A stretch of DNA of 64,000 bases from Patescibacteria group bacterium (GTDB lineage: Bacteria > Patescibacteriota > Patescibacteriia > JAXHNJ01), in assembly GCA_034520665.1 (NCBI GenBank), contig JAXHNJ010000001.1, forward strand, positions 2,579-66,578, written 5' to 3'. The notes under the pieces were generated by a model. That model searched no databases. It was not told the DNA's origin and saw only the letters and a program-made list of their open reading frames with translations. A program made the position numbers and the translations under genes. This document shows positions 6,243-27,874 of this stretch, piece by piece. Position 1 is the stretch's first letter. The number at the start of each line of letters is the position of its first letter.

Positions 6243-6305
6243 ATAGATTAAAAAAAATCTTATTTAAAAAAAAGATCTTTTTATATTATTTGGCTTAATT
6301 AATTT

Positions 6306-6926: not shown

Positions 6927-6929
6927 TTA

Positions 6930-9796: not shown

Positions 9797-9818
9797 ATTA
9801 ATAATATTTACTTATATT

Positions 9819-11601: not shown

Positions 11602-11611
11602 AACTTATATT

Positions 11612-12199: not shown

Positions 12200-12240
12200 A
12201 ATGATAAATAGATAATTTTTTCATATATTTATATTTTAAT

Positions 12241-12350
12241 TAACCTAAACCTTGGCTGTCTTTACTAACACTTTATACCTCTGATAGCTTTCGGCGGTAA
12301 GCTATCAGAGGTATAAAGTGTTAGTAAAGACAGCCAAGGTTTAGGTTAAT
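12241..12350. repeat. Symmetry junction of the inverted duplication: arms meet at 12291..12298 with an 8-nt asymmetric spacer (tcggcggt)
   Basis: Perfect reverse-complement symmetry on both sides (..ctgatagctt|tcggcggt|aagctatcag..). Confidence 0.9.
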
Positions 12351-12389
12351 TAAAATATAAATATATGAAAAAATTATCTATTTATCATT

Positions 12390-12977: not shown

Positions 12978-12987
12978 AATATAAGTT

Positions 12988-13536: not shown

Positions 13537-13544
13537 ATTATAAT

Positions 13545-14771
13545 ATGATAAATAAAAATATAAAAATATTAACTAAATTAACTTTAGTTTTAACAGTATT
13601 ACTTTTTTTACTCTTTCCTTTTTATAATACTTTAGCTCAAGAAGAGGGTAGTAATGAAACCGGAGAAAAGGAAATACCAGTAAATTTGAAAATACCAAAA
13701 TTGACTAAACCCTGTGATGAAAACGGAAAATTTGCTGGTAGTTACTGTGTCAATAACTTTGGCGAATATATTATACAGTTTTACCAATGGTTTGCTCGAG
13801 CGGCCGGTATCTTTGCCGCTGTCATGATTGTCTTTGCTGGTTTCCAGTGGATTACTGCCAGCGGCAATGCCACCAAAATAGAAAAAGCCAAAGCCACTTT
13901 AAACGGCGCTTTAATCGGTCTGGTTTTAACCTTAGGGGCTTTTGTTTTACTTAATACTATTAACCCGGCCTTGGTCCGCTTTAAACTTTTGCCCTTGTCT
14001 AATATATCAAAAAATGTTTTAGATACTTTTTATTGCAAAGATTTCCCGGATAAAGAATCAATAGATAATTACCCACATTTTGCTTGTGGTACAAGTTATG
14101 ATATTCCTAAAAGTGTCCAGGATGAAGTGGGTTATGGTGAATCTTATTGTTGTGGTAGTGTCTGTAGTGATGTTGATGAGGAGGGTAACCCACAAATTTG
14201 TGCTAATGATGTAACTATGGTGGGTGAAGATTGTCCTTTAAATTGTTTTGACCCACAAAAATTATGTGAGGAAGCTAATAAAGATGAGTGTTATAAAATT
14301 GACGACATATTGGAAAAAAATAAAATAACTGATTATAAATGTAGTAAGGATAGACCCGGTCTTTCCTTTGACTCCTGTGCTTATGTTGAAATAGTAGAAA
14401 ATCCTTGTGAAGGAAATTGGAAAAGAATAAATTGTAGTTTTAAAGGAGAATATTCTGGAGAAGTAGAAACAGCTTGTTGGGATAAAGATGAGCCAAGGGA
14501 TTATTGTACAAATGATGAAAGAGTAGGAGATATTGATAAATGGTGTTGCGCTCTATTTCCTAAAGAAAATATATTTTGCCAAGAAGAAAAACCTTACTCG
14601 AGTATGGGAGATGTTTGGGAAGAAAAAGATATTATACAGATAGATTGTGATAGTGATATTTTAGACAATGGAGAAAGTTATAATAGTATGTCAGGTACCT
14701 ATTACGACAACACTACTGAAAATTGTAGTTCAAATTGTTGGATGCGCACTAATTTATTGTGGAAAAATTAA
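13545..14771 (+). CDS. Cys-rich secreted/membrane protein, paralog A (right-arm copy)
   Basis: Signal peptide, conserved two-helix module and a Cys-rich C-terminal domain. Forms a tandem pair with 14974..16248. Confidence 0.6.
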   Translation: MINKNIKILTKLTLVLTVLLFLLFPFYNTLAQEEGSNETGEKEIPVNLKIPKLTKPCDENGKFAGSYCVNNFGEYIIQFYQWFARAAGIFAAVMIVFAGFQWITASGNATKIEKAKATLNGALIGLVLTLGAFVLLNTINPALVRFKLLPLSNISKNVLDTFYCKDFPDKESIDNYPHFACGTSYDIPKSVQDEVGYGESYCCGSVCSDVDEEGNPQICANDVTMVGEDCPLNCFDPQKLCEEANKDECYKIDDILEKNKITDYKCSKDRPGLSFDSCAYVEIVENPCEGNWKRINCSFKGEYSGEVETACWDKDEPRDYCTNDERVGDIDKWCCALFPKENIFCQEEKPYSSMGDVWEEKDIIQIDCDSDILDNGESYNSMSGTYYDNTTENCSSNCWMRTNLLWKN

Positions 14772-14793
14772 AATATAAGTAAATATTATTAAT

Positions 14794-14973
14794 ATGAACC
14801 CAAAATTAAAAAGAATTTTACTCATTATCGGCTTTATGTGGAGAAAATCCTTGTGGATCAAGTGCATCTGCCAGTGCTACTGATTGCAGTATTGTGCCTA
14901 ATGGACATTGCTGTATGGATGTTAACTTATATGTTAAAAATGAAAATAATATTTTTCCTAATTAAATAATAAG
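14794..14973 (+). pseudogene. Gene remnants (propeller-gene start fragment + decayed Cys-rich tail), right-arm copy
   Basis: Mirror of 9617..9796. Confidence 0.5.
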
Positions 14974-16248
14974 ATGAAAAAAATAGCTAAAATAATCTTA
15001 ATCCTATCAATTTTTTCCGTTTTGTTATTTTATTCAGGGCAAGTTTTAGCTCAGGAAGAAGGAAGTGATACAGAAGTGGGTGAAAAACAGATTAAAGTAA
15101 ATTTACAAATTCCCGGCTTAACCAAAAAATGTGATCCCGATTGTAATACCTCTACCTGTGATTATTGTGTCAATAACTTTGGCGATTATATTATACAGTT
15201 TTACCAATGGTTTGCTCGAGCGGCCGGTATCTTTGCCGCTGTCATGATTGTCTTTGCTGGTTTCCAGTGGATTACTGCCAGCGGCAATGCCACCAAAATA
15301 GAAAAAGCCAAAGCCACTTTAAACGGCGCTTTAATGGGTCTGGTTTTAACCTTAGGGGCTTTTGTTTTACTTAATACTATTAACCCAGCCTTGGTCCGCT
15401 TTAAACTTTTGCCCTTGTCTAATATATCAAAAAATGTTTTAGATACTTTTTATTGCAAAGATTTCCCGGATAAAGAATCAATAGATAGTTACCCATATTT
15501 TGCTTGTGGTACAAGATATGATATTCCTAAAAGTGCCCAGGATAAAGCAGCTTATGGTGAATCATATTGTTGTGGTAGTGAATGTGATCCGACTGTAGAA
15601 ACTAAATCCGGAGAACCAAAAATTTGCGCCAATGACGTTACTTCTAAAAAGGATTGTCCTTTAAATTGTTTTGACCCCAAGGATTTATGCGATGAAGCTG
15701 ATGATGAAAAATGCCAAGAAGTGGATGCTGTTATTGCTAAAAATCCAGAAATAAAATCAAGCTGCCGTAGAATTAATAAGGGTTTTGGGAATATGGACTG
15801 CCGTTTTGCAAAAATACGTGGTACTAGTAGTAATGGAATATTTGAAGTTAATCTTTTACAAGATGAGTTGACTGAAAAAGTCTGTGAAGAAGTTACTGAT
15901 ATAAGAATAGATTGTGAACGTGGCGGTACCCAATGTTGGGACTCTGATAATAATGAACCAAGATATCTCATAGCTCCTAGCAAAATTTTTTGTAGCAGTG
16001 ATTCCCGGGCTAACGTAGAAGCTGACACTATTTGTTGTATGAAAGCCTTAAAAACAGAAATTGATTGTCGGGATCCTGGGAAATGTGATAGTAAAAATGA
16101 AATTGAGGTAGACTGTGACACCTATAATAGCCCGGAATTTAATGATATGAAATACCAAGGTGGCGGCGAGGATCTTGCTTGTATTGATAATAATGAATGT
16201 TTTTGTCCAGCTGATCATATTTGTTGTGCTCAAACTTATCTTCATTAA
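14974..16248 (+). CDS. Cys-rich secreted/membrane protein, paralog B (right-arm copy)
   Basis: Identical protein to 8342..9616(-). Confidence 0.6.
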   Translation: MKKIAKIILILSIFSVLLFYSGQVLAQEEGSDTEVGEKQIKVNLQIPGLTKKCDPDCNTSTCDYCVNNFGDYIIQFYQWFARAAGIFAAVMIVFAGFQWITASGNATKIEKAKATLNGALMGLVLTLGAFVLLNTINPALVRFKLLPLSNISKNVLDTFYCKDFPDKESIDSYPYFACGTRYDIPKSAQDKAAYGESYCCGSECDPTVETKSGEPKICANDVTSKKDCPLNCFDPKDLCDEADDEKCQEVDAVIAKNPEIKSSCRRINKGFGNMDCRFAKIRGTSSNGIFEVNLLQDELTEKVCEEVTDIRIDCERGGTQCWDSDNNEPRYLIAPSKIFCSSDSRANVEADTICCMKALKTEIDCRDPGKCDSKNEIEVDCDTYNSPEFNDMKYQGGGEDLACIDNNECFCPADHICCAQTYLH

Positions 16249-16403
16249 AATTTACTTGATTATATCGTCAAATTATTAGAGAAATATTTTTTTATATCTA
16301 AATACAGCTAATAAACTCTACTATTAATTATAAAATTTTAGCTCCAAACTTATCTGTATTTTAACTATTAATAAATAATTTAATTAATTTATAAATAGAT
16401 TAT

Positions 16404-17660
16404 ATGAACCCAAAATTAAAAAGAATTTTACTCATTATCGGCTTTATAGCCGTAGCCGTTTTTTTTGGCTATTTAATTTACCGTATCTTATTTTCGCCAA
16501 TAATAGATACTAATGATAATGATAATTATAATGTCAACGGCATTTTACCTAATATTAACGCGGTTAATCGCCCCACAGGCAATATTAATGATAATTTAAA
16601 TGTTAACGAAGCTTTGCCTAATATTAATGGTACAGCTCAGCCCGAACCGCCCTCCCAGGTAGCTTCCGGCGGGATTACCGAGGTTAGTAAGATTACCGAA
16701 GACTTAACCAAGTCAGCTGTAATAGATACCAATAAAAAGGATTTGATTTATTATGATGAATTAACTGGAGAATTTATTAAAACTTCGCCGGATGGCACCA
16801 CTAAAACAAAATTAACTGACGATAAATATCCCGGAGCCGAAGATATTTACTGGTCTCCTTCACGTGATAAAGCTGTTATTACTTTTCCTGACCGATCCAA
16901 AATAACTTACGATTTTAACCTAAAAAAGCAGTACAGTTTACCTAAAGAAACATATGAATTTTCTTTTTCTCCGTCATCAGGTAAATTAGCTTATAAGTAT
17001 CAGGGCGAGCAGGAAGGAGATAATTATTTAGCTGTTTCTGACCCTGAAGGCACTTCAGCCAGATTGGTGGAAGACTTGGGGCAATATGCTAATCAAGTAA
17101 CTGTAAATTGGGCTCCTAATAATCAGGTTATTGCTACTTATAACAAATCAACCAGTACTGAAGAGCAGGAAATAATTTTTTTAGGGGCTAATAATGAAAA
17201 TTTCCCCTCTGTTGATGTATCCGGAAGGGGTTTTAAATCAAAATGGTCACCGACAGGCAATACTATTTTATACAGTGTTTTTGACAAAGAATCAAATTAT
17301 AACCCCAGTCTTCATATAATGGACGGCACTATGGAAAATATAGGAGCCAGTCAAGTTGATTTAAACATACAGACCTGGCCTGATAAATGTGTTTTTGGCG
17401 ATAATAATTATATTTACTGCGCCGTACCTGAATTTCTGCCCAGTGGCAGTGACATTTATCCGGAATTAGCTAATAATGTACCTGATGATTTTTATAAAAT
17501 TAATCTGGAAACAGGTTCAAAAGAATTATTAGCTAGACCGGTAAATTCTTCCGGATTTGGTAACTATACGGCCCAGAATGTTTATCTTTCCAATAATGAA
17601 GAATATATTTATTTTACCGATAAAAATACAGGACGAGTTTATAAAATAAGACTGAAATAA
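16404..17660 (+). CDS. Membrane-anchored PD40/TolB-like beta-propeller repeat protein (right-arm copy)
   Basis: Identical protein to 6930..8186(-). Confidence 0.5.
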   Translation: MNPKLKRILLIIGFIAVAVFFGYLIYRILFSPIIDTNDNDNYNVNGILPNINAVNRPTGNINDNLNVNEALPNINGTAQPEPPSQVASGGITEVSKITEDLTKSAVIDTNKKDLIYYDELTGEFIKTSPDGTTKTKLTDDKYPGAEDIYWSPSRDKAVITFPDRSKITYDFNLKKQYSLPKETYEFSFSPSSGKLAYKYQGEQEGDNYLAVSDPEGTSARLVEDLGQYANQVTVNWAPNNQVIATYNKSTSTEEQEIIFLGANNENFPSVDVSGRGFKSKWSPTGNTILYSVFDKESNYNPSLHIMDGTMENIGASQVDLNIQTWPDKCVFGDNNYIYCAVPEFLPSGSDIYPELANNVPDDFYKINLETGSKELLARPVNSSGFGNYTAQNVYLSNNEEYIYFTDKNTGRVYKIRLK

Positions 17661-17663
17661 TAA

Positions 17664-18282
17664 ATGGATAAAAAAAAGCTAGGCCTAAATGCTTTAATAG
17701 TATTAGCTGTATTAATAGTTATTCTATTTGCTTATTCGGTTTTGTCTTTTTTAATGATAAAACTGGTTCAAGTTTTCCGAAAATTAAATCAGAAAACCCC
17801 ATTATAGGGAAAAAAGTAATGAAGTGGTAATAATTCAATATGGGGATTTTCAGTGTCCTTATTGCAGAGAGTTGGCCGATATTTTTCGTAATTTAAATGA
17901 TGAATATGAAGGAGAGATAGCTATTGTCTGGAAGGATTTTCCGCTTCATCAAATTCATGATCAATCTTTAAACGCGGCTAAGGCGGCCCGTTGCGCTCAG
18001 AAGCAGGATAAATTTTGGCAGATGCACGATCTACTTTTTCAAAACCAAAAAAAACTAACTGATGACTTATATGTACCCTTAGCTTCTGGCTTAGATTTGG
18101 ACACTGATGAATTTATTCAATGTGTTAATAATAATGAAACCCTAGCTTTAATTCAGAAAGATATAGAGGAAGGAACAAGTTTAGGTGTTCAGGGCACGCC
18201 TCATTTCTTTGTAAATAATTATGAAATAACTGAGTTAATTGAAGAGGAGGAACTCAAAGATATTATTGATTCATTGCTTTAA
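17664..18282 (+). pseudogene. DsbA-like thiol:disulfide oxidoreductase, frameshifted copy (homopolymer indels vs left arm)
   Basis: The ATG at 17664 reads MDKKKLGLNALIVLAVLIVILFAYSVLSF, then the frame is lost. The CPYC-containing part survives as the ORF 17824..18282. T6 vs T7 and A6 vs A7 run differences relative to the left arm. Confidence 0.6.
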
Positions 18283-18345
18283 AAATTAATTAAGCCAAAT
18301 AATATAAAAAGATCTTTTTTTTAAATAAGATTTTTTTTAATCTAT

Positions 18346-18379
18346 AAAAAAAGAAGGGTGGTTCGGCTGAACCACCCTG
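18346..18379 (-). terminator. Rho-independent terminator (mirror of 6209..6242)
   Basis: Same GC stem and T-run on the minus strand. Confidence 0.8.
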
Positions 18380-18388
18380 GTGAAAGTA

Positions 18389-18664
18389 CTAGTTTGTCTG
18401 TAGATGTTTTTTAATTTCGGGATTAACATCCCCAATTATTTTAATAACCTCATTTCTTAACTTGGAGTGATTTTCATGCTCAGCCCATTGCCGGGCCCAG
18501 TTGATTAAGCCACTGCTGTTTCTTTCAAGATGTTTTTTGAATCCTTCCTTTTTTGAAAATTTCCGGATTTCTTCTAATAATGTTTTTTCTCCGTTGCGAT
18601 GTATAATCTGACTGGCGTTGTTAACTCCCAGTAAAGAACAGAGATTATTTGTGTAGACACACAT
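18389..18664 (-). CDS. Hypothetical 91-aa protein (right-arm copy)
   Basis: Identical to 5924..6199. Confidence 0.5.
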   Translation of the reverse strand: MCVYTNNLCSLLGVNNASQIIHRNGEKTLLEEIRKFSKKEGFKKHLERNSSGLINWARQWAEHENHSKLRNEVIKIIGDVNPEIKKHLQTN

Positions 18665-18777
18665 CTTTGATCCTCTCTTTAAACAGACAAACTTAGCTAA
18701 TTTATGGTTTTATATTTCAATTAATTCACCTCCTTTTTTTGTTTTTAAGTCAACTAGACCAAGAAATAATTAATTAA

Positions 18778-18907
18778 TTGAAAAAATTAAAGAGGGAGCA
18801 CTTTTTTTATAAATAGTCTTTTAAACAGGCGAGAGGATCAATCTTTACCTGTTTAAGACTTTAGTTATTTATGAGCGGAAGCGCTCCCTCGTGTGTACTT
18901 AAAGTGC
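18778..18907 (-). promoter_or_regulatory. Structured 5' leader, mirror copy of 5681..5810
   Basis: Reverse complement of the left-arm leader. Confidence 0.35.
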
Positions 18908-18957
18908 CTATAATAATAAATACTATCTAAAATTTTAATATTTGTCAAGAGCTTGGC

Positions 18958-21063
18958 TTATTCCCAATGTGTGTCTTTATATAAATTCTCGGCCTTTTGC
19001 TTAATTTTATAATATTTTTTCAAGGCCGGATCTTTTTTAGTTAAATCTTGGGCTGCTTCACGTGCCATTTTAATAATATCTACGTCTGCCAAAGTGGCCA
19101 TTTTGAAATCGGGCAAACCAGATTGTTGGGCACCGGTTAACACACCGGGACCGCGCATTTTTAAGTCATATTCAGCTAATTTAAAACCATCTTGAGATTT
19201 TTCTAAAGCCTCCAGTCTTTTTAGATTTTTGGGTGATTCACTTTCTGTAAAAACAAAGCAAAAAGATTGTTTTTCACTGCGCCCCACTCGCCCCCGAAAC
19301 TGATGCAGTTGAGCCAAACCAAATCTTTCAGCTCCTTCAATCATCATGACCGTGGCGTCAGGAATATCTATGCCGACTTCAATAACTGAGGTGGAAACTA
19401 GGATATCTATGGCTTTATTTTTCATTTGATCCATAATTTTTTCTTTTTCTTGGGTTTTCATTTTACCGTGGAGCCTGGCCACTTTAAAATCTGGAAAAAT
19501 ATCTTTAGCTATTTTCTCATATTCCTCTTTAACAGATTTTACACCTAGTTTATCCGAAGGTTCGATTAAAGGACAGACTACAAAAACCTGGTTTCCATTT
19601 TTAATTTCTTCTTTAATAAACTTGTAAGTTTTTTTTCTTTTTTCCGGTTCAATCACTTCAGTTTTTATTTTTTTACGGCCCTGAGGCATTTGGTCAATTA
19701 TAGAAAGGTCAAGGTCAGCGTAGACAGTTAGAGCCAGCGAGCGAGGAATGGGGGTGGCGGTCATTGAGAGTAAATGTGGCGCTAAATCATGTTTTTTTGA
19801 GGATTTGTCTCTTAGGGCTTTTCTTTGCTCAACTCCGAAACGGTGCTGTTCATCAACCACCACAAAAGCTAAATTGTGAAAACTAATTTTTTCCTGGATT
19901 ATAGAATGAGTGCCAATAACTATATTCACGCCACCTTTTTTTATTATAGTACTGGCTTTCTTTTTTGATAATTCCTCATCGTTAATTTTTATCAGTTTAC
20001 TGGTTAAAAGCCCCAGAGAGAAGTTAAAAGTTTTTAATATATTTTTTATTTTTAAATAATGCTGCCGGGCCAGTATTTCTGTCGGAGCCATAAAAGCCAC
20101 TTGAAAGCCATTTTTAATGGCTAGAAAAGCAGCCATTAGGGCCACTACTGTTTTTCCAGAGCCTACGTCTCCTTCTAAAAGCCTGTTCATGGGGTTACCT
20201 TTTTTAAGATCTTTAATAATTTCCTGACTTGCTTTTTCCTGAGCCTTGGTTAGTTTAAAAGGCAGGTTATTTTTAAAATCATCAATATATTTATCTTTAT
20301 AATTTATAACCGGAGCACGAGTTTGTTTAATAAATCTTTTATTTTGCAGTGATTGTATCTGAATATAAAAAAGCTCGCCAAATTTAAGTCTCTTTGAAGC
20401 CTTTTCTAACTTTTCAAAAGAATCAGGAAAATGAATTTGTTTTATAGCTTCTGGCAAAGGCATTAGCTGGTATTTTTTGGTAATTCTTTCAGGCAGGGTT
20501 TCTTTAATTTTTTTACGCAAAGTTAGTGCAGTTTTTATAAAAAATCTTATTTGTCTTTGAGAAAGTCCGCTAGTTAAGGGATAAACCGGTACTATACGGC
20601 CGGTGTGGGTTTGTTCTTTTTTTACTTTTTCAAAAGAAGGAGCTAAGAATTCCAAAGTTAATTCCTGCATTTTAACCTTACCCGAAAGAATAATTTCATC
20701 TCCGGGATTAAGTATTTTCTTTAGATAAGGCTGATTAAACCAAATTATTTTAATAGAAGCAGTCTTATCTTTAACCATAGCTTCAGTAATAGTCAGACGA
20801 CGCTTTTTCCAGCTGCGCCGGCTTTTTATAAGTTGTAAGGTACCTCTGATAGTATAAACTTCTTCCGGCTTAATGTCTTTGATAGGGGTTATTTCGGAAA
20901 AATCCTGGTATCTATTAGGAAAATAAAAAAGAAGGTCTTGTACTTTATTTAAGCCAAGACTTTTTAGCCGTCGGGCTGTGGTTGGTCCGACAGTAGGAAT
21001 TTCTGTAAAATCAGAATTAGCTTTGATCATAGATCTATTCAATAAAAATACTAAAATTATCAA
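18958..21063 (-). CDS. recG: ATP-dependent DNA helicase RecG (right-arm copy)
   Basis: Identical to 3525..5630. Confidence 0.9.
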   Translation of the reverse strand: MIILVFLLNRSMIKANSDFTEIPTVGPTTARRLKSLGLNKVQDLLFYFPNRYQDFSEITPIKDIKPEEVYTIRGTLQLIKSRRSWKKRRLTITEAMVKDKTASIKIIWFNQPYLKKILNPGDEIILSGKVKMQELTLEFLAPSFEKVKKEQTHTGRIVPVYPLTSGLSQRQIRFFIKTALTLRKKIKETLPERITKKYQLMPLPEAIKQIHFPDSFEKLEKASKRLKFGELFYIQIQSLQNKRFIKQTRAPVINYKDKYIDDFKNNLPFKLTKAQEKASQEIIKDLKKGNPMNRLLEGDVGSGKTVVALMAAFLAIKNGFQVAFMAPTEILARQHYLKIKNILKTFNFSLGLLTSKLIKINDEELSKKKASTIIKKGGVNIVIGTHSIIQEKISFHNLAFVVVDEQHRFGVEQRKALRDKSSKKHDLAPHLLSMTATPIPRSLALTVYADLDLSIIDQMPQGRKKIKTEVIEPEKRKKTYKFIKEEIKNGNQVFVVCPLIEPSDKLGVKSVKEEYEKIAKDIFPDFKVARLHGKMKTQEKEKIMDQMKNKAIDILVSTSVIEVGIDIPDATVMMIEGAERFGLAQLHQFRGRVGRSEKQSFCFVFTESESPKNLKRLEALEKSQDGFKLAEYDLKMRGPGVLTGAQQSGLPDFKMATLADVDIIKMAREAAQDLTKKDPALKKYYKIKQKAENLYKDTHWE

Positions 21064-21083
21064 CAGTATTTTTAAGAGTTACT

Positions 21084-21905
21084 TTATAATTCGATGCCAC
21101 CCCATTCGATTACAGTAAATCCTATTCTTTCGAAGTTTTTTATTAATTGAGGTGTAATTTTTATTGGGTCTTCTAAGGCTTTGTAAACCATAATAATTCT
21201 TTGTACTGAATCCGGTTTTGGTAAAATATTTAATTTAACTCGATTATGATATTCTTCTGCCGTAGCAAAATGAATAAGGTTAAATTTATTGTTTTGCATA
21301 CGTGGTAGCCAATATTCGATAAATTCTTTTATTTCTTGGTCAATAAGGCCCATATCTTTTAAACTTTTTTGGAAGAATAATTTTGTATTTTTTCCTTTTA
21401 CAATAAAGCCTTGTGAAAGATCGTAGGCGATCTTGTTCTGGTATTGTCCTTCCCAGAAAAGATAGTTGTATTTTTTATTATTTATTAGATTTAATATTTC
21501 CCCACTAGGTTTTGCTATCACATGCCAGCCATTTTGATATTCGGGATTTGATGCGAATATTTTTCCGGGGAAATCTATATTTATTTCTATTTGAGTTTCT
21601 TTTTCTGGGTAAAGATAAATTACTGGTTTTTCTACAGGAGAGCCAATATCTTCAATACTATAAGAAGTTATAACTGGATAACCCCTTGTATTAGTATTTA
21701 AAGAGTCAGATTTTCTGGTATCGATACTAGATGAATTTGGTTCTAATAAAGGTATATTAAGAAAATTATCTATAATAGCAGCTTTAGTTAAACCAGCGAA
21801 AATTATTAATAAAGAAATAATTATAACAATGGCGGCAATAAAACCAGTTTTAAAACCTTGTTGATTTTCAGAAAATATTTTTGGCTCTTTATAAAAATTA
21901 TCCAT
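21084..21905 (-). CDS. Hypothetical membrane-anchored protein (right-arm copy)
   Basis: Identical to 2683..3504. Confidence 0.45.
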   Translation of the reverse strand: MDNFYKEPKIFSENQQGFKTGFIAAIVIIISLLIIFAGLTKAAIIDNFLNIPLLEPNSSSIDTRKSDSLNTNTRGYPVITSYSIEDIGSPVEKPVIYLYPEKETQIEINIDFPGKIFASNPEYQNGWHVIAKPSGEILNLINNKKYNYLFWEGQYQNKIAYDLSQGFIVKGKNTKLFFQKSLKDMGLIDQEIKEFIEYWLPRMQNNKFNLIHFATAEEYHNRVKLNILPKPDSVQRIIMVYKALEDPIKITPQLIKNFERIGFTVIEWGGIEL

Positions 21906-21956
21906 GTTTATATGATAGCATAATTAATTTTAAAAATAAAAAATTATCCTTACCCA

Positions 21957-22028
21957 TGCCCTCGAGAGGAATTGAACCTCTATTTTAGGATCCGCAATCC
22001 TACGTCCTATCCGTTGAACGACGAGGGC
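21957..22028 (-). tRNA. tRNA-Arg (GCG), right-arm copy
   Basis: Reverse complement of 2560..2631. Confidence 0.7.
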
Positions 22029-22054
22029 AAAAGTAAAGATATCTTATAATTAAT

Positions 22055-22555
22055 CTAAATCTTAAGTGAACGGCTAATTTGATCTGAAGCTGGCTCTTCT
22101 TCCTTTTCTAAATCTTCTTCAATATATTTTTTTAACACTTTTCTGACTTCAAGTGGGTTTTGTTTTTCCAGAGAAATAGGCAGGGTTGGTTTAAGTGAGC
22201 TTTTAAAATCGATATAAAGCACTTTTGTTTCAGGAGGGCGGTAAACAATCCAGAATTTTTTAATATCATTGTAGTCATAGAAGCTAGTGCCAGTTTCTAT
22301 ACCATCTTCTTTAATGCGGCACTCAAGAATTTTTGGTTTTTTACGGTTTTGGAAAACAAAAATAATACCCACCAGAATAATAACCAGGGTAAAGAGATAA
22401 TTACCGGTAAAGATTGACCACACTAAAATAGCCGCCGATATTAATAAAGTAGAAACATACCATAATTTTCCCCGATTAGGTATGTCATATTCTGAAAAAT
22501 CCCATGAAAGTAAGGTTTTACCCCGATCAGGGATTTCTTTTTTTTCTTCAGCCAT
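22055..22555 (-). CDS. Hypothetical membrane protein (right-arm copy)
   Basis: Identical to 2033..2533. Confidence 0.5.
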   Translation of the reverse strand: MAEEKKEIPDRGKTLLSWDFSEYDIPNRGKLWYVSTLLISAAILVWSIFTGNYLFTLVIILVGIIFVFQNRKKPKILECRIKEDGIETGTSFYDYNDIKKFWIVYRPPETKVLYIDFKSSLKPTLPISLEKQNPLEVRKVLKKYIEEDLEKEEEPASDQISRSLKI

Positions 22556-23010
22556 ATATTTTTTCCTCCGTTTATTATTTAAATTATACTCTAATTATAG
22601 GTTTTTTTAGGGGATTTTTCAAGTTAGTGTTTTGAGGTACGTAGATTGGGGTTTAAAAACAAAGAAATGGCTCGGAGAAGTTGAAGTGAATATTCGCAAA
22701 ATACGCAAAATATCTCTTAAAAGAGGGTAGTCTAGACGAAAAGCGTGAACGGCTAGCGAATTTAAAAAGTAGATTAAACTATAAAGATAAAAAAAATTAC
22801 CTTAATAAAATAAAAAAACAACGACGAATCCGTTAAAACCGCTGTTTGTTTGTATTATTTAAGCCACTCGGGGTTACCCTCGATAAATAATTGTGTTTTA
22901 AAAAGGTATTAAGTTTTTTTACCTTTGATTAAATTTTCTTTCTTCTTTCTTGACCATTTCTTGATTTGTAATCCTGCTTGAGCGGGATGCGGAAACGACT
23001 TTATTTTTTC

Positions 23011-26000
23011 CTAGATCAACTGAATTAACTTTTCTAACTTTTTATTTTTTGTCTGCTGATATACTTTTTCCATTTGGTCTTTTTCTACTTCGTTGTATCC
23101 AAAACTTGAAGCTAATTGAATATCAATGTCGTCCTTTAATAATTTATTTAATTCATCTTCGTCAGTTAAATTAACAAGTAATTTATATTTATCCATCTCT
23201 AACTCCGACATTCCCATTTGCTGAACAACCTGATGCTGAAAACCGTCTCGTTCAAATAGCCCTCTATAGTGATGATATATTTTTTGATATTTTTCAAATT
23301 GTTCGGTTTTTGATTTAAGGAAGCTTTTATCAGCTATTATTTCTTTACCTTCTTTTTGTTTTAATAACTCTGAACTAATTAAAATAGTCAATATCATTGC
23401 AGCGGTTGTGGCAATTTTGACAATTGGCGATTTGGTCTTCTCTTTCAACCATTCAAACATAGCATAAACATTTTCTGGTTTTTTGAATAATACTTCTTGC
23501 TCTGCCTTTTCTTCAAAAGTCGTAAACTCAGTCTGGACAACTTCTTGTAATGCCTCTTGAATTTTAGGCAAATAATTATCAATTTCTTCTTTTTTGTTAT
23601 CAATACTAAATGAAGCTCTGATTACCCCGTTTCCGTGCCATTGCAAATCTTTTTTCTGAATTTTTGTTCGGTCTATATAAGACAGGTAAATGCCTTTATC
23701 AGCTAACTTTTGTGCAAACTCTTTATTATCAACTCCTGAAACACTAAAAGAATAAATAAATGATGTTCCTCCTTCAACTTCGTACAAAGTTAAACCTTCC
23801 TGTTCAGCAATTTGATGAATTTTATCTCTAAAATAATCTTTAAGTTCTTGGCGTTCTTGTGTTACCTTTTCAAAATTTCCATTTTCGTAGCCTTTCTCCT
23901 CTAAAGTCTGGATAGCATTATTAAAGCCAAAAGCGTCAACACAATCAATCTCATCTTCAATATCTGTATTCGGATGTATCTCTAGTTTATCATCAAACAT
24001 GTACTTCAAAATAACCTGCTCATCCTGCCAGTGTAATTTATTTAATTTGAACAAATTCTTTTTAACTTTAGGGCTATCAGGATTAAAATATCCTAATCCT
24101 AATGGGGTGCTGGCCATTGTTTTATGAGGAGTGCCAAAATATGCGTCGCAACCTATGTCATCAAACTTTACTTCTGAAACATTGCCTAATGCCTGTGCCC
24201 CATCAATCATTACAAAAATATCTGGGTCTTTAGGATTAAGTTCTTGTTTTTTCTTTCTCACAAATTCAATAATATCTTTTACTGGCAATTCAATACCTGT
24301 ATCACGAATAACCTGACTAATAACAAAACATTTTGTATCTGGAGTTAAACCGTTTTCTATATTTTTATAGATTGTTTTTAAATCTTTATTAACAACATCA
24401 ATTATATCTGTCTTAATTCCTGTTAACTCATCAACTATTTTACCGTATTTTTTACCCCTCTTCTTGTAAAAGGTTGGGTAAGCTGACCAAGGGTCTTTAC
24501 CTTCAGGGTTGCCGTGGTCAATGTTAGCTTCAAACAACCTAACAATTGATTTGTTTTCAGCGTTTGATAATAGAACTTTATCGCCTTTTTTAAGTCCTAC
24601 CAACCAAGAAACTAATTTCATTGCCTCGGTTGTATTTCTGCCAAAAACAACTGCTTCTGGTTTAACCCCCACCAATTCAGCTGCTTTTTCTCTCGCTTGT
24701 TCAAATAATTGTTCTTTTTGATTTTCAGACACATCTTTTGCCTCTGCTAACATCTTTTCAATTTCTTTTGGTCTGTTGGTAATAGAAGCGTGGTTTAAGT
24801 GTAGCGCTTCTCTTTCTCCATCAAGATATTCTTGATAATAATCCCAATTAAAATAAAAATCTTCTTCAAATTCCTGCCTATATTTTTCAAGATGTTGTTG
24901 AATTTCTTGGCTGTCAAATTCTACTCCTATCAAGCCCTTACCTAATTTTTTACGAGCATAAGCATATATCTCATTTACTTTCGGGATATTTAAATTAGAC
25001 AGATGATGAGCCGACTCAAAACGAGGATGTCTTTTAAGTTTTTGGCTAAAATCTGGAAGCACTCCCTTTTTGGACAACTCCAACCACTCTTGTGTTCCTG
25101 GATAGGCAGTATTTATATTTATACCAACAGAATTTTTAGATATTAAACCTTGAGATTTTAACTCTGAAATATAATCAATAGTCTGCTGATAGCTTCCTAT
25201 ACCTTCTAATCCGAACTGAAGAGAAACCCCTACTTTTATGCCAGCCTCTTTGCACCAATCCAATACATTTTCAACTTTTTCTAATTTAATTTTTTTACCA
25301 CCTTTAGATATAGCTTCTTCTAATTGTTCAAAGCCAAAATAAATATAGGAACAACCCGATTCTTTCATCTTATCAATAAATTCTTTATTTGGAATATCAA
25401 TAAAAGTTGTTTGACAGCCCCATTCAAAAGAAGCTTCTTCTTTTTGTAAATCAATTATCCCATCCAATAATTTTTCTGTTCTTTTTGGTTTTTGAGTAAA
25501 AGTCGAGTCATCAAAAAATACTGCTTCGTATCCATAATCTTTAATTAGAATTTCAATTTCTTTTAATGCTCGCTCTGGAGTTGGTCTGTCTTTACATAAT
25601 TTGTAAAGTGATGGTTGTTTATCTTTATTTGACAAGAGTGACTCCATACAAAAACTGCAAGCGTATTTACACATTATTTGGGTCATAACTTGAGCTGTTT
25701 TTTTATCACCAAAAACAGGAAACTTATTTTCTGTGGTCAATCTACCTCTAAACATAAAAGGCAATTTATTCCAGTCAACTGGGTTGCCTGACAAAGAAAT
25801 TGAATTAACTTTGTCTTTCTTATCTTTGACAAAGATATTGCCAGACCCTTCCACATTTTGAAAAATATCTTTATTTTTTATTATTTCGTCAATTATTTCC
25901 TGATTTTTTTTATCTGTATTATTAGCAATAAACTTAAAAATTTCTGTCAGGGCATATTGCCCGTCGCCAGCAACTAAAATATCAATTAACTCTTTTTCCT

Positions 26001-26832
26001 GCTCCTTGCTTAAAGTTGATTGTTTTTCAAGTGTCTTTTTTTGTTCATCTGTTAAACCAAGTTTTTCTCTAATACTTGGGTTAAAATACGCTTCGTGATT
26101 TGTCCCATCTTCATGAGAACCGCCCAAAATAACCAATGTGTCTGGGGAGTATTGCTTAACAATTTTAGCCAGCTCAATAGCAAAATAATGACCTTCGGAA
26201 GTGTTGCTTATCCCAACCGCTCTTGGTTTTTTGTCTTTTATTTCTTCAACAAAATTTTTAACAAATTCATCACTATACTCAGCGGGATTTTGCATTGATA
26301 AAATTTCAGGACTTTTCTCTGCTGGGAAAGTATCAGTTCTGACATATCTGTCCAAAACAGAAGTTGCATACATTAAAGGAGTTGGTTCGCCTGGGAATGT
26401 TCCGCTAACACCTTCTGAAATATGCGGGGCACTAACAAACATTACTGAAAAATGTTTCAGCTTATATTTCTCGTCTTCAAGTGCTTCAACAAATTTTTCG
26501 TGGCTTGTAAATTTCATATCTTTCAAATTTTGTTTAGCCTGTTTTTCTATTTTCAAATCCCGCTCCTTCAAAAAACTAATATATTCATTCGTATTAAATT
26601 CTTGTTCAGGACTGAAATAGTAAGCCTTACCTGTCTCTTTTTCAATTTTCTTTTCTGTATCAGTTAAATCTTCTGAAACCTTTTTCTCTTGACCTTCCCT
26701 AATCACTTCCAAATCAGCGCCTTCCTGTAAGGTGTCAGCAAGGCCTTTATTCTTTAAAGTTTTTGCCCTCTTTTCTAAGTTAATGGCTTCTTCGTGAAGA
26801 CTGTTTATATTATTTTCCTTTCTCTTAATCAT
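23011..26832 (-). CDS. Multidomain fusion: coiled-coil N-terminus + B12-binding domain + radical SAM core + class-V aminotransferase/cysteine-desulfurase-like PLP domain + C-terminal extension
   Basis: Rossmann-like B12-binding stretch RAVGISNTSEGHYFAIELAKIVKQYSPDTLVILGGSH. Radical-SAM CxxxCxxC (MCKYACSFCME). PLP-fold region with GTPHKTMASTPLG (Lys-PLP) and FVMIDGAQALG. 1273 aa. Confidence 0.7.
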   Translation of the reverse strand: MIKRKENNINSLHEEAINLEKRAKTLKNKGLADTLQEGADLEVIREGQEKKVSEDLTDTEKKIEKETGKAYYFSPEQEFNTNEYISFLKERDLKIEKQAKQNLKDMKFTSHEKFVEALEDEKYKLKHFSVMFVSAPHISEGVSGTFPGEPTPLMYATSVLDRYVRTDTFPAEKSPEILSMQNPAEYSDEFVKNFVEEIKDKKPRAVGISNTSEGHYFAIELAKIVKQYSPDTLVILGGSHEDGTNHEAYFNPSIREKLGLTDEQKKTLEKQSTLSKEQEKELIDILVAGDGQYALTEIFKFIANNTDKKNQEIIDEIIKNKDIFQNVEGSGNIFVKDKKDKVNSISLSGNPVDWNKLPFMFRGRLTTENKFPVFGDKKTAQVMTQIMCKYACSFCMESLLSNKDKQPSLYKLCKDRPTPERALKEIEILIKDYGYEAVFFDDSTFTQKPKRTEKLLDGIIDLQKEEASFEWGCQTTFIDIPNKEFIDKMKESGCSYIYFGFEQLEEAISKGGKKIKLEKVENVLDWCKEAGIKVGVSLQFGLEGIGSYQQTIDYISELKSQGLISKNSVGININTAYPGTQEWLELSKKGVLPDFSQKLKRHPRFESAHHLSNLNIPKVNEIYAYARKKLGKGLIGVEFDSQEIQQHLEKYRQEFEEDFYFNWDYYQEYLDGEREALHLNHASITNRPKEIEKMLAEAKDVSENQKEQLFEQAREKAAELVGVKPEAVVFGRNTTEAMKLVSWLVGLKKGDKVLLSNAENKSIVRLFEANIDHGNPEGKDPWSAYPTFYKKRGKKYGKIVDELTGIKTDIIDVVNKDLKTIYKNIENGLTPDTKCFVISQVIRDTGIELPVKDIIEFVRKKKQELNPKDPDIFVMIDGAQALGNVSEVKFDDIGCDAYFGTPHKTMASTPLGLGYFNPDSPKVKKNLFKLNKLHWQDEQVILKYMFDDKLEIHPNTDIEDEIDCVDAFGFNNAIQTLEEKGYENGNFEKVTQERQELKDYFRDKIHQIAEQEGLTLYEVEGGTSFIYSFSVSGVDNKEFAQKLADKGIYLSYIDRTKIQKKDLQWHGNGVIRASFSIDNKKEEIDNYLPKIQEALQEVVQTEFTTFEEKAEQEVLFKKPENVYAMFEWLKEKTKSPIVKIATTAAMILTILISSELLKQKEGKEIIADKSFLKSKTEQFEKYQKIYHHYRGLFERDGFQHQVVQQMGMSELEMDKYKLLVNLTDEDELNKLLKDDIDIQLASSFGYNEVEKDQMEKVYQQTKNKKLEKLIQLI

Positions 26833-26918: not shown

Positions 26919-27113
26919 TTAATAAAAAGTGGGGTTTCTTAGCCCGCTTTCAAGGCTACTACTGATATACCCTCTGTCCATATTTAAAGCACGAGAAATA
27001 TTCCCTTGAGATGTTCCCTTTTTAGTCCGAATTTCCTTTAAATTTTTACCTAATTTTTTAGATAAATCGTCCATAATATCAATGATATTATATAACTTAT
27101 TAAATTTATTCAA
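26919..27113 (-). CDS. XRE-family helix-turn-helix transcriptional regulator (short, possibly truncated)
   Basis: LGKNLKEIRTKKGTSQGNISRALNMDRGYISSLESGLRNP matches the Cro/C1 HTH pattern. Confidence 0.55.
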   Translation of the reverse strand: MNKFNKLYNIIDIMDDLSKKLGKNLKEIRTKKGTSQGNISRALNMDRGYISSSLESGLRNPTFY

Positions 27114-27335
27114 CTCTCATGGCCGGTAAGGTTTTGTAGACAAACTTAATCCTTATGTTCTTTAAATCTTTTGTTTAGGTTAGTTGAATAACCTACATAT
27201 CTTTGCTTAGGATATTTTATACTTTTTAGATAATAAACGTAATATAAGATATTTTTTTTGGCGACCAGAATCATAAAACTTTGTTTCGGTTCTGGTCTGC
27301 CACGAACCGAAAAATTCTTTTCTGGTTCGTGGCGG
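27112..27335. repeat. Direct repeat copy 1 (~225 bp) flanking tRNA-Ser(UGA)
   Basis: Near-identical to 27560..27788. Contains hairpins CCACGAACC/GGTTCGTGG, GACCAGAA/TTCTGGTC and AGGTTA/TAACCT. Confidence 0.85.
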
Positions 27336-27419
27336 TGGGAGCAGGATTCGAACCTGCGGTCCCCGTTAAGAGACTCTGGTTTTCAAAACCAGTGCATTCG
27401 ACCACTCTGCCATCCCACC
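27330..27419 (-). tRNA. tRNA-Ser (anticodon UGA), CCA encoded
   Basis: The reverse complement folds as GGTGGGA..TCCCACC-G-CCA with anticodon loop TTTGAAA, a long variable arm and T-arm GCAGGTTCGAATCCTGC. Confidence 0.8.
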
Positions 27420-27559: not shown

Positions 27560-27788
27560 CAACTCTCATGGCCGGTAAGGCTTTGTAGATAAACTTAATC
27601 CTTGATTATGTTCTTTAAATCTTTTGTTTAGGTTAGTTGAATAACCTACATATCTTTGCTTAGGATATTTTATACTTTTTAGATAATAAACGTAATATAA
27701 CATATTTTTTTTGGCGACCAGAATCATAAAACTTTGTTTCGGTTCTGGTCTGCCACGAACCGAAAAATTCTTTTCTGGTTTGTGGCGG
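27560..27788. repeat. Direct repeat copy 2 flanking tRNA-Ser(GCU)
   Basis: Same sequence as 27112..27335 with a 7-nt insertion and two substitutions. Confidence 0.85.
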
Positions 27789-27874
27789 AGAGGGTGGGAC
27801 TTGAACCCACAAACGGCTTTTGAAACCGTTACAGTTTAGCAAACTGCTGCCTTACCAATTCGGCGCACCTCTCC
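27783..27874 (-). tRNA. tRNA-Ser (anticodon GCU), CCA encoded
   Basis: The reverse complement folds as GGAGAGG..CCTCTCC-G-CCA with anticodon stem GCAGT/ACTGT, loop TTGCTAA, a long variable arm and T-arm GTGGGTTCAAGTCCCAC. Confidence 0.75.

Follow-up and report, generated by a model that had tools for sequence, protein, structure and literature searches.

A rare fusion of a class-B-type radical-SAM module with a SufS-like PLP module in a Patescibacteria group bacterium

A fusion gene in a housekeeping region

The window analyzed here, a stretch of 64,000 nucleotides from a Patescibacteria group bacterium, carries a complete open reading frame at positions 23011 to 26832 of the minus strand. 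According to the open reading frame list, it begins with an ATG start and encodes a radical-SAM/PLP fusion protein of 1273 amino acids. This is a genuine, intact gene, collinear with independently assembled homologs over residues 12 to 1273 at 40 to 75% identity. Upstream on the same strand lies an XRE-like frame of 64 amino acids (positions 26919 to 27113), which is probably truncated, since its HTH_3 match (23.1 bits) spans only profile positions 1 to 37 of 55. The original prediction had placed an XRE regulator and tRNA genes next to the fusion, and we find this XRE-like frame as well as two tRNA-Ser genes and one tRNA-Arg gene adjoining it. In the other loci compared, an XRE gene does not recur as a conserved neighbor. 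Within the window, the surroundings of the fusion are housekeeping genes (RecG, ComF, ClpC, and tRNAs).

The left part of the window folds back on itself. Positions 1 to 12290 are the reverse complement of 12299 to 24588, with 0 mismatches and 6 gaps, and the arms at 1 to 6781 and 17807 to 24587 are 100% complementary. The inverted-repeat match places a mirror copy of the last ~525 codons of the fusion in the left arm (positions 1 to 1577, plus strand), which is not a second gene. The outer limit, 24587, falls inside the fusion at about codon 749, so that the palindrome boundary that had been said to cut the gene does exist in the sequence, but the palindrome is an assembly fold-back artifact with no bearing on the fusion, and the gene is unbroken. 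A near-perfect fold-back over 1 to 24588 whose limit lies within the gene might suggest that the fusion is itself a chimera of palindromic misassembly, a notion to which we assign a negligible probability. The gene lies some 10.7 kb away from the sole true fold-back junction, the center at 12294/12295, and position 24587 mirrors the first position of the window. Moreover, independent assemblies give a single collinear match across codon 749, and the chimera was rejected on the homologs that span it, namely, L011 (75% identity), L012 (55%), L013 (58%), and L001 (58%).

Domains and conserved residues

The N-terminal 130 residues (positions 26443 to 26832; all parts of the protein are given on the minus strand) are charged (42% K/E/R/D) and poorly conserved, have no Pfam match, and are variable or missing among the aligned homologs, being present in only part of the family. 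They are followed by a Rossmann-type "B12-binding" domain at about residues 131 to 345 (positions 25798 to 26442), recognized by Pfam, invariant columns, and fold match, with the invariant motifs GEPT, NP, IS, and GGxHED; the cobalamin-binding stretch of the original prediction, RAVGISNTSEGHYFAIELAKIVKQYSPDTLVILGGSH, is found here at residues 203 to 240. Pfam B12-binding (PF02310) scores 32.0 bits against a cut-off of 32.1, formally just under threshold. An AlphaFold model of residues 131 to 660 (pLDDT 89.6, pTM 0.89) matches TsrM, TokK, CysS, and AprD4 in Foldseek at E values of 1e-13 to 1e-15, and for the first three the fold match extends across about 500 aligned columns. By its modeled fold, the protein thus has the N-terminal Rossmann-type cobalamin-binding domain of class B enzymes, with marginal Pfam support. 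AprD4 contains a Rossmann domain yet is B12 independent. Because it is among the best structural matches, "B12" here is a fold assignment, and cobalamin use is predicted only; the earlier description as a "B12" enzyme stands for the type of Rossmann fold and not for the cofactor, given that AprD4 matches the model just as well. No motif in a sequence is diagnostic of cobalamin binding, a scan for cobalamin or SAM riboswitches found none, and just one genome (L019/L059) has a gene for cobalamin adenosyltransferase at a distance of 7 kb from the fusion.

The radical-SAM barrel occupies about residues 375 to 640 (positions 24913 to 25710), as indicated by Pfam Radical_SAM (PF04055, 47.0 bits; cut-off, 29.5), invariant columns (FFDDSTFT, EWGCQT, and GCxYxYxGxE), Foldseek, and a model with pLDDT of about 90. 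The cluster-binding CxxxCxxC (C388, C392, and C395; positions 25648 to 25671) is invariant in sets of 23 and 37 aligned sequences and, in the canonical form already noted before in QIMCKYACSFCMESL (residues 385 to 399), lies within this partial TIM barrel, which places the protein in the radical SAM superfamily. Apart from this motif, C473 and C494 are the only cysteines of the radical-SAM half that are invariant, and neither Pfam nor the invariant columns reveal an auxiliary-cluster motif, SPASM, twitch, or UPF0004. It therefore shows no sign of the second Fe-S cluster, with cysteines of its own, that marks sulfur-inserting radical SAM enzymes of the BioB/LipA/MiaB type. The order of an N-terminal Rossmann domain and a CxxxCxxC barrel is shared with TsrM, TokK/ThnK, CysS, and AprD4 (Foldseek TM up to 0.58/0.67). 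However, identity to any solved member of this group is only 12 to 15%, and none of these four carries a class-V PLP module or is known to have one as a partner. Weak NCBIfam matches to ApyD, HpnJ, Pput_1520, and PhpK were obtained for this half, none reaching its threshold (the highest score was 62 bits, the cut-off being 750).

The PLP module, at about residues 655 to 1100 (positions 23533 to 24870), has a SufS-like fold. Pfam Aminotran_5 (PF00266) matches at 94.9 bits (cut-off, 21.5), Foldseek returns SufS, NifS, and C-DES at E values of 1e-18 to 1e-19, and the whole core (residues 131 to 1100) is modeled at pLDDT 87 and pTM 0.79. The predicted three-domain architecture of B12-binding, radical-SAM, and Aminotran_5 parts agrees with the Pfam check, B12-binding falling just under its cut-off while its fold is clear. 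Family motifs of the PLP module (DFY, LNHAS, RNTTEA, AENxS, DHGNPxGxDxWS, SHVxRDxG, DGAQALG, GCDAY, PHKT, SYIxR, and RxSF) are all carried by stand-alone PLP relatives too. The predicted Schiff-base lysine, Lys904 (codon at 24121 to 24123), had been proposed within GTPHKTMASTPLG (residues 900 to 912); the alignment puts the HK of PHKT opposite that of SufS, and K904 is invariant. FVMIDGAQALG, also singled out before, is located at residues 873 to 883. K904, D877, Q880, the RNTTEA phosphate loop, and R1072, which maps to the alpha-carboxylate Arg of SufS, are invariant or nearly so, and the module thus has the Schiff-base Lys, the Asp to the pyridine nitrogen, and the phosphate-binding loop of the class-V aminotransferase fold. 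The PLP residues are kept across fused and free members at a mean column identity of 23 to 32%, and CxxxCxxC and other radical-SAM motifs are invariant; judging by these alignments, both active sites are under selection.

The module shares its fold with SufS/CsdA and C-DES (Foldseek E of about 1e-19, TMt 0.65 to 0.76) and has in common with SufS the PLP Lys (HK), DGAQ, the phosphate-binding loop, and the substrate-carboxylate Arg. In contrast, the SufS-type catalytic-Cys loop is deleted or replaced and contains no Cys in any member: SufS RxGHHC aligns with IDRTKIQKK in our protein, and the family profile has a deletion in place of the loop. The acid/base His of SufS (EHH/EHK) is Asn in all members (EHH to ENx; here N760, motif AENxS). 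As this Asn takes the place of the residue expected to stack on PLP, the PLP environment is atypical. In addition, an invariant Arg (R843) stands where SufS has the Asn that hydrogen bonds PLP O3', and there is a DHGNPxGxDxWS insertion specific to this PLP-module family. NCBIfam scores fall under the curated thresholds (TIGR01979 sufS, 72 against 475.1; CsdA, 49.5 against 607; IscS, 23.6 against 548). A cysteine desulfurase identity (SufS/NifS/IscS/CsdA) was rejected on the missing Cys loop, the His-to-Asn change, and these scores; "desulfurase-like" is apt at the level of the fold but not of the catalytic residues.

Past the PLP module, hydropathy analysis locates the C-terminal hydrophobic segment of the original prediction at residues 1135 to 1157 (positions 23362 to 23430). 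Its maximum Kyte-Doolittle 19-mer is 1.71, and no other hydropathy peak of the protein exceeds 1.6. As a transmembrane helix the segment is only borderline, and it is a possible membrane anchor. The segment is restricted to the sub-clade of our protein (P0001, P0003, P0004, P0007, P0010, and P0012) and absent elsewhere. The tail that follows, residues 1158 to 1273 (positions 23011 to 23361), is conserved only in that sub-clade in the alignment and has no known domain in Pfam.

Pairing of the modules and genomic contexts

The fusion is rare, with 64 homologs at E<=1e-30 among 1.84 billion cluster representatives, and is patchily distributed across taxa. It is no singleton, however, being present in about two dozen clusters at 50% identity. 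Some members bear the automatic NCBI name "aminotransferase class V-fold PLP-dependent enzyme," and we found no curated NCBIfam equivalog, characterized enzyme, or published description of the fusion, in line with the earlier remark that the architecture is not a familiar one among characterized enzymes. This is a rare, uncharacterized enzyme family that is not unique to the present genome. The two modules occur fused as radical-SAM then PLP in our protein's clade and in one Gemmatimonadota/Acidobacteriota clade, and as PLP then radical-SAM in P0021-24. They also occur split, a 1560-aa PocR+HD+B12+radical-SAM protein being followed after 28 to 32 nt by a PLP homolog of 429 to 452 aa, and split in the reverse gene order. 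Because the pairing recurs in four gene arrangements, comparative evidence strongly supports functional coupling of the modules, as the proposal of a coupled radical/PLP transformation would have it.

Several contexts point towards chemistry on amino acids. The stand-alone proteins most closely related to the radical-SAM half, at about 40% identity and with family-HMM scores that exceed those of some fusions, sit in nonribosomal peptide synthetase (NRPS) clusters of the actinobacterial genera Streptomyces, Micromonospora, and Catenulispora, together with C-A-T-TE modules, a CmlA-like beta-hydroxylase, and a second B12-radical-SAM protein. Fusions outside the CPR bacteria adjoin amino-acid transporters or other PLP enzymes: those of L004 and L009 follow a LivK/HMGF-type ABC transporter, and that of L039 is the last gene of an operon that also encodes a fold-type II PLP enzyme and a class I/II aminotransferase. 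Around CPR fusions the neighbors are mostly housekeeping genes; neither a substrate gene, for which a survey of relatives had been proposed, nor a third gene is conserved there.

In a minority of loci, the context is one of phage, recombinase, or defense-island genes. Such surroundings could reflect a role in inter-genomic conflict, either as a mobile accessory module making a toxic or antiviral small molecule or as a phage countermeasure, which we consider unlikely. The L002 fusion, of our protein's clade and architecture, has Replic_Relax, two serine recombinases, XRE, and UvrD on its flanks, along with a Septu system that is genuine (PtuA, 553 bits; PtuB, 218 bits). The split pair of L057 adjoins TIR (PDC-S35) and SIR2-TPR proteins, the L053 pair adjoins type I and MmeI-type restriction-modification genes, and TIR-NB-ARC, a GmrSD fragment, and DUF4062 lie on the flanks of the L039 operon. 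Furthermore, the L007 and L008 fusion lies within a phage tail/lysis region, RVT_1, MazE, and Fic genes occur close by in L001, L058, and L059, serine recombinases are the sole recurrent neighbor (4 loci), and the patchy distribution fits such a role. However, the 4 to 5 of ~18 loci in such contexts may not exceed background, and most CPR loci, this window included, lie among housekeeping genes. No homologs occur in 50,697 phage records or IMG/VR, and plasmids give only remote single-domain matches. No PADLOC v2 defense-protein model was matched, weak SspA/DndA matches (E of about 1e-7) reflecting the desulfurase fold. Among the split-system proteins, the giant L053 protein alone gave a match, marginal and sub-threshold, to the candidate PDC-M51A (E of 4e-5, 20.6 bits, no individually significant stretch). 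The chemical-defense version would resemble prokaryotic viperins in its logic. This reading concerns biological role and is compatible with the chemistry that we favor below.

Proposed chemistry of the fusion

How the two modules cooperate admits several answers. In one that we regard as rather doubtful, the chemistry would be concerted and aminomutase-like: the PLP module would bind the substrate as an external aldimine, on which a 5'-deoxyadenosyl radical or cobalamin-derived species from the adjacent radical-SAM site would act directly to bring about a 1,2-shift or some other rearrangement. The tight fusion in both orders and the confident whole-core model (pTM 0.79), which suggests a fixed interdomain arrangement, are consistent with this. 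There is also general precedent for a 5'-deoxyadenosyl radical source and PLP in one enzyme, lysine 2,3-aminomutase being radical SAM plus PLP and lysine 5,6- and ornithine 4,5-aminomutases being adenosylcobalamin plus PLP. However, PLP in these enzymes lies outside a SufS-like domain, and to our knowledge no aminomutase uses a fold-type-I class-V PLP domain. KamA-type families are absent from the Pfam, NCBIfam, and PDB matches, which show no sequence relationship to any of these aminomutases, so that membership in the lysine 2,3-aminomutase family is not indicated. Fold-type-I active sites are, in addition, buried at the homodimer interface, and because the pair also exists as two separate proteins in split loci, diffusion or channeling of an intermediate is favored.

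Less probable still is sulfur mobilization or insertion, in which the PLP module would act as a desulfurase or C-S lyase and pass sulfur to a radical intermediate of the radical-SAM module, as the original prediction had envisaged. The nearest relatives of the PLP module by sequence and structure are SufS, CsdA, NifS, and C-DES, a Cys-independent cystine lyase, and C-DES sets the precedent of a persulfide made without an enzyme cysteine. Sulfur delivery is nonetheless improbable because the desulfurase residues are lost in all members (no Cys loop, acid/base His changed to Asn, sufS score of 72 against 475) and the radical-SAM half offers no auxiliary-cluster cysteines, C473 and C494 being its only extra invariant ones. 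Very improbable, finally, is a degenerate, noncatalytic PLP module serving as a scaffold or dimerization domain with the radical-SAM half as sole enzyme. Two canonical desulfurase residues are indeed lost, and relatives of the radical-SAM half stand alone in Actinobacteria or are fused to other partners, TauD and AAA. Yet the PLP Lys, Asp, Gln, phosphate-loop Thr, and carboxylate Arg are (nearly) invariant in fused and free members, in alignments the pattern of an active site rather than of a decayed domain.

CPR bacteria have minimal biosynthetic metabolism, which counts against a special amino-acid product; so too, for the two-step chemistry set out below, do the lack of a conserved substrate gene at CPR loci, the AprD4 match, the lack of a riboswitch, and the PLP-stacking Asn. 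In its favor are the selected active sites, the confident folds, the four arrangements, the amino-acid contexts, and the Orf29/Orf30 (Swb7/Swb6) precedent. There, adjacent genes encode a B12-radical-SAM protein and a PLP enzyme of fold type I, which process a single amino-acid-type substrate one after the other, taking SAM to 4''-methyl-SAM and on to MeACC (1-amino-2-methylcyclopropanecarboxylate) (PMC7277169, PMC10491745). Unlike the present fusion, Orf29 and Orf30 are separate proteins in Streptomyces NRPS clusters; GnmY/Orf30 are described only as members of the aspartate-aminotransferase superfamily, and any homology of the pathway's two proteins (BCD33697, BCD33698) to the halves of our protein would be hypothetical.

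Our best explanation, which we hold tentatively, is a two-module enzyme in which one small substrate of the alpha-amino-acid type is worked on by both modules, through two coupled steps. Starting from the domains, the conserved catalytic residues of both modules, the lost desulfurase residues, and the recurrent pairing, we infer the amino-acid substrate, the step order, and the reaction types. A class-B-type radical-SAM module, comprising the Rossmann "B12" domain and the [4Fe-4S]/SAM barrel, would be permanently paired with a distinctive PLP module that keeps the SufS fold without the desulfurase Cys loop and acid/base His. The radical-SAM module would carry out a radical C-H functionalization, a methylation if cobalamin is bound and otherwise a rearrangement or dehydration-type reaction. 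A PLP-dependent change at C-alpha, C-beta, or C-gamma would follow, whether elimination, replacement, transamination, or cyclization, and the product may be a non-proteinogenic amino acid or a metabolite derived from one.

Architecture and integrity of the fusion gene

The query open reading frame (23011 to 26832, minus strand) has an ATG start and encodes 1273 amino acids, and the four stretches cited in the original prediction are all found in its translation (aa 203 to 240, 385 to 399, 873 to 883, and 900 to 912). Pfam matches place a B12-binding domain at aa 192 to 242 (32.0 bits, 0.1 bit under the curated threshold), Radical_SAM at aa 387 to 542 (47.0 bits), and Aminotran_5 at aa ~700 to 1086 (94.9 bits). 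As NCBIfam gives only subthreshold matches (SufS, 72 versus 475; ApyD, 62 versus 750; HpnJ, 59 versus 578), the protein is claimed by no curated family. An AlphaFold2 model of aa 131 to 1100, built from 28 family sequences, has a mean pLDDT of 87 and a pTM of 0.79, and its PLP half resembles the structures of SufS, NifS, IscS, and C-DES (Foldseek E value about 1e-19). A separate model of aa 131 to 660 (pLDDT 89.6, pTM 0.89) resembles the class B radical-SAM enzymes TsrM, TokK, and CysS (Foldseek E values of 1e-13 to 1e-15, TM up to 0.58/0.67); however, the B12-independent diol dehydratase AprD4 fits this model equally well in Foldseek. The "B12-binding" label is thus used here as an assignment by fold, with cobalamin a putative cofactor. 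Since the Pfam matches agree with the Foldseek comparisons of both models, the three-domain architecture is confirmed. Outside these domains, the N-terminal 130 residues are 42% charged, Pfam negative, and poorly conserved. The sole strongly hydrophobic stretch (aa 1135 to 1157) and the 116-residue tail that follows it are restricted to the query's subclade in the family alignment.

An inverted duplication, with arms of 12,290 nt and an 8-nt centre (12294/12295), makes up the first 24.6 kb of the window. Positions 1 to 12290 are the reverse complement of 12299 to 24588, and the 12.3-kb comparison shows 6 gaps but no mismatch. Because indel-only differences are expected from two error-containing passes over one molecule, the palindrome has the look of a long-read assembly artifact, a fold-back chimera, which is the simplest reading of such a sequence. 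The gene had been described as cut by the palindrome boundary. Position 24587 does fall within it, in codon ~749, but this point is a mere mirror image of window position 1, and the true fold-back junction at the centre lies ~10.7 kb away from the gene. In homologs from other, independent assemblies, the match is single and collinear across codon ~749, with 75% identity over aa 12 to 1189 at locus L011 and 55 to 58% at L012, L013, and L001. As judged from this collinearity, the gene is intact and nonchimeric, and an origin of the fusion by assembly chimera is refuted by the same homologs and by the distance to the junction. The ORF at 51 to 1577 (plus strand) is nothing more than the mirrored copy of the gene's 3' part.

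Every gene in 1 to 12290 likewise mirrors one in 12299 to 24588, as exemplified by tRNA-Arg(gcg) at 2559 and 21956. Within the duplicated region, three tandem paralogous ORFs of 408 to 424 aa lie at 13545 to 17660 (mirror copy, 6930 to 11180), with near-identical N termini and internal repeats of 300 to 424 nt (96 to 99% identity, spacing of 1,420 nt). They look like a small, recently expanded family, probably of secreted or surface proteins.

Neighbors of the query gene in the window are RecG, a DUF5673 membrane protein, tRNA-Arg, an XRE ORF, two tRNA-Ser genes, ComF, and ClpC. The XRE and tRNA neighbors of the original prediction are therefore both present, although the XRE ORF is probably truncated. 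A role for it as a dedicated regulator is unsupported, given this truncation and the fact that XRE is not a conserved neighbor. A search for riboswitches and other RNA elements near the gene returned tRNAs only, and a promoter and terminator scan around it gave no excess over shuffled expectation. Adjoining the truncated XRE ORF is a 202-nt direct repeat (27153 to 27354 and 27606 to 27807; 96% identity, spacing of 453 nt), which takes in the 3' end and downstream flank of each tRNA-Ser gene (anticodons tga and gct) and could be a tandem duplication or an integration scar at a tRNA.

Active-site residues of the two modules

To compare active-site residues, alignments of 23 fusion proteins and of 20 PLP modules, the latter including free-standing relatives, were used. 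In the radical-SAM half, C388, C392, and C395 are invariant, as are the motifs GEPT, GGxHED, FFDDSTFT, EWGCQT, and GCxYxYxGxE. The only further invariant cysteines are C473 and C494, and no auxiliary-cluster motif is found in this half across the 23 fusions. The PLP half shows little or no variation at K904 (PHKT), at D877 and Q880 (DGAQ), in the RNTTEA loop, and at R1072. In a profile search against PDB sequences, these residues align with the SufS Schiff-base Lys, pyridine-nitrogen Asp, O3' Gln, phosphate loop, and substrate-carboxylate Arg, respectively.

In contrast, other elements of the SufS active site are remodeled. The SufS EHH motif becomes AENxS, with N760 replacing the acid/base His, and the Asn of SufS HVSN is replaced by an invariant Arg (R843), after which the PLP module carries a family-specific DHGNPxGxDxWS insertion. 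The family profile lacks the catalytic-Cys loop of SufS (RxGHHC), and the query has a Cys-free stretch in its place. From this residue pattern, the PLP module appears to be catalytically competent and suited to an alpha-amino-acid-type ligand, but it is no cysteine desulfurase.

Distribution and gene arrangements

Among 5.8 billion proteins, a word-indexed search identifies ~35 with the same three domains, mostly from Patescibacteria/CPR metagenomes; a few of these have been automatically named "aminotransferase class V-fold PLP-dependent enzyme" by NCBI, and one (P0034) has a Gemmatimonadaceae bacterium as its NCBI source label. An exhaustive search with phmmer, run against 1.84 billion representatives at 50% identity, yields 9581 matches at an E value of ≤1e-3 and 64 at ≤1e-30, the latter including about two dozen full-length fusions and ~20 free-standing PLP relatives (30 to 40% identity). 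With one genome per GTDB species, the fusion hosts are Patescibacteria, Parcubacteria, Magasanikbacteria, Peribacteria, and one Pyrinomonadaceae metagenome-assembled genome. A full-length fusion with 48% identity to the query and CPR-type N- and C-terminal extensions is also found at L014 (CAZHTA010000011.1), labeled "uncultured Gammaproteobacteria bacterium," a taxonomic label that may be a binning error.

The radical-SAM/PLP pairing is kept in four ARRANGEMENTS, fused in both orders and split in both orders. Radical-SAM precedes PLP in the fusions of the query clade and of a shorter clade of 900 to 1,000 aa, which lacks the N- and C-terminal extensions, while PLP comes first in the single polypeptides P0021 to P0024. 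In one split arrangement, a 1560-aa protein comprising a PocR sensor, HD-CE/HD, B12-binding, and Radical_SAM is followed after 28 to 32 nt by a PLP protein of 429 to 452 aa (29 to 30% identity to the query for the radical-SAM part and 33% for the PLP protein); the other split arrangement has the opposite order. All family-specific motifs are present in the free-standing PLP proteins of the 20-module alignment. Fusion in both orders, together with adjacency in both orders, is classic evidence that the modules serve a single process. Elsewhere, the radical-SAM clade is fused to TauD or an AAA ATPase.

Giants of 1,560 to 2,190 aa, with PocR sensor, HD-CE/HD phosphohydrolase, and B12/radical-SAM portions, are encoded at L053 (5275 to 11290), L056 (8001 to 14078), and L057 (6421 to 14585), and next to each lies a Cys-less PLP module homolog. 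Other neighbors at L053, a DNA polymerase B gene and one of Rad51/RadA type, suggest that its host is archaeal.

The two domain superfamilies are familiar ones, and databases already list the fusion under automatic names. No curated NCBIfam family and no paper was found that describes the fusion, its split counterpart, or the SufS-like subfamily without the Cys, nor did PDB and Foldseek searches find a solved structure with more than ~20% identity to the query. A literature search on PocR/HD-CE radical-SAM proteins and on radical-SAM plus aminotransferase defense returned nothing relevant except the Orf29/Orf30 precedent. The query fusion is a real, rare feature, with a putative mechanism.

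Chemistry, genomic context, and possible roles

The nearest free-standing relatives of the radical-SAM half share ~40% identity over aa ~120 to 634 and score higher with the family HMM (546 to 599 bits) than Gemmatimonadota-type fusions do (519 to 530 bits). Their hosts are Streptomyces (S. griseus NCTC13033 among them), Micromonospora, Catenulispora, Amycolatopsis, and relatives, where they belong to a conserved cluster (L016 to L038) that also encodes a second, distant B12-radical-SAM protein, a thioesterase-like protein, and a single NRPS module, either as C-A-T-TE or with A and T-TE on separate proteins; the Catenulispora version adds a CmlA-like beta-hydroxylase. Examples span 7314 to 16494 at L016 and 7290 to 16056 at L029, and Jatrophihabitans is also among the hosts. 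The family HMM detects no PLP-module homolog within 8 kb in these clusters, and no link to a known product was found for them. Two Gemmatimonadota-type fusions (L004 and L009) lie downstream of a LivK/LivHMGF-type ABC transporter, a context that counts as weak evidence, as the two loci may share descent. At L039, the Pyrinomonadaceae locus, a same-strand operon that also encodes a class I/II aminotransferase and a fold-type II PLP enzyme ends with the fusion. The NRPS clusters, transporters, and PLP-enzyme operon together point to amino-acid chemistry.

By analogy, serial radical-SAM and PLP action has a published precedent in Orf29/Orf30 (Swb7/Swb6), a B12-domain radical-SAM protein and a fold-type I PLP enzyme working in series (PMC7277169; reviewed in PMC10491745), by which SAM is methylated and then cyclized to 1-amino-2-methylcyclopropanecarboxylate (PMC7277169). 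GnmY is described solely as an aspartate aminotransferase superfamily member (PMC10491745).

We tentatively favor, at somewhat below an even chance for the explanation as a whole, that a single small molecule of the amino-acid type is processed by both modules in two coupled steps, one a radical C-H functionalization and the other PLP dependent, yielding a nonproteinogenic amino acid or derivative. At the sequence level, both active sites are intact and conserved, as is their partnership; the substrate class, step order, and reaction types we infer. A concerted, PLP-assisted radical rearrangement of the aminomutase kind is an unlikely route, as split versions exist and fold-type I sites are buried. 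The original prediction's example of sulfur delivery is disfavored, sulfur mobilization and insertion by a canonical cysteine desulfurase being ruled out by the missing catalytic Cys and His and the absence of auxiliary-cluster cysteines; any form of it seems quite improbable. That the PLP domain is a degenerate scaffold is harder still to credit, as its PLP residues are invariant.

Genomic context bears on role. All-against-all clustering of 206 neighbor ORFs from 15 loci reveals no conserved partner or substrate gene around CPR fusions, serine recombinases, at four loci, being the sole recurring neighbor. Bulk Pfam annotation assigns 84 neighbors for the most part to housekeeping families. 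Some loci, a minority, have a clearly mobile or defense-like setting. At L002, where the fusion shares the query's architecture, the neighbors are a true Septu system (PtuA, 553 bits; PtuB, 218 bits), Replic_Relax, XRE, UvrD, and two resolvases; at L007 and L008, the fusion separates phage tail genes from a holin/endolysin cassette; type I and MmeI-type restriction-modification genes adjoin L053, and TIR and SIR2-TPR proteins adjoin L057; and the flanks of L039 carry TIR-NB-ARC, a GmrSD fragment, and DUF4062. These contexts would fit a role in conflict, such as chemical defense, that overlaps and is compatible with the coupled amino-acid chemistry. However, PADLOC gives fold-level SspA/DndA matches and nothing beyond, and there are no homologs in IMG/VR or GenBank phages. 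We regard such a role as rather unlikely, yet a live minority hypothesis. Doubtful in its full form is a horizontally spread two-component system, in CPR, soil phyla, archaea-like genomes, and at least one phage, in which the PLP module would present a substrate to radical chemistry to make an antiviral or antagonistic modified amino acid. If the chemical-defense reading is true, the pair would constitute a new class of chemical-defense module.

At L007 (1 to 19459; JGI Ga0118719_1000163), the fusion is of the PLP-first type and lies on the opposite strand, with a tape-measure/Dit tail module on one side and a holin/M15 peptidase cassette on the other, a moron-like location within a phage or prophage. 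Reverse-transcriptase (RVT_1) genes lie 6 to 7 kb from the fusion at two CPR loci belonging to the query's clade (L001, 17753 to 19243; L058, 1296 to 2315), and at L058 a MazE antitoxin gene is directly downstream. Plasmid searches returned remote single-domain matches only.

Radical-SAM and PLP enzymes are among the most versatile catalyst families. To our knowledge, aminomutases are the only well-understood cases of the two in one protein, and their construction is quite unlike the class B-type radical-SAM and remodeled desulfurase-fold PLP modules described here. The value of the finding lies in this conserved partnership rather than in the surroundings of the query gene. The persistent association signals a reaction yet to be explored, probably one that makes an unusual amino acid. 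Tractable entry points for biochemistry are the radical-SAM half in NRPS clusters of cultured Streptomyces and Micromonospora and the compact fusions and operons of Gemmatimonadota and Acidobacteriota, the latter so far from metagenome-assembled genomes only. CPR bacteria encode very little biosynthesis. For them, a 1273-aa enzyme is a notable investment, one that may relate to host interaction or phage conflict.
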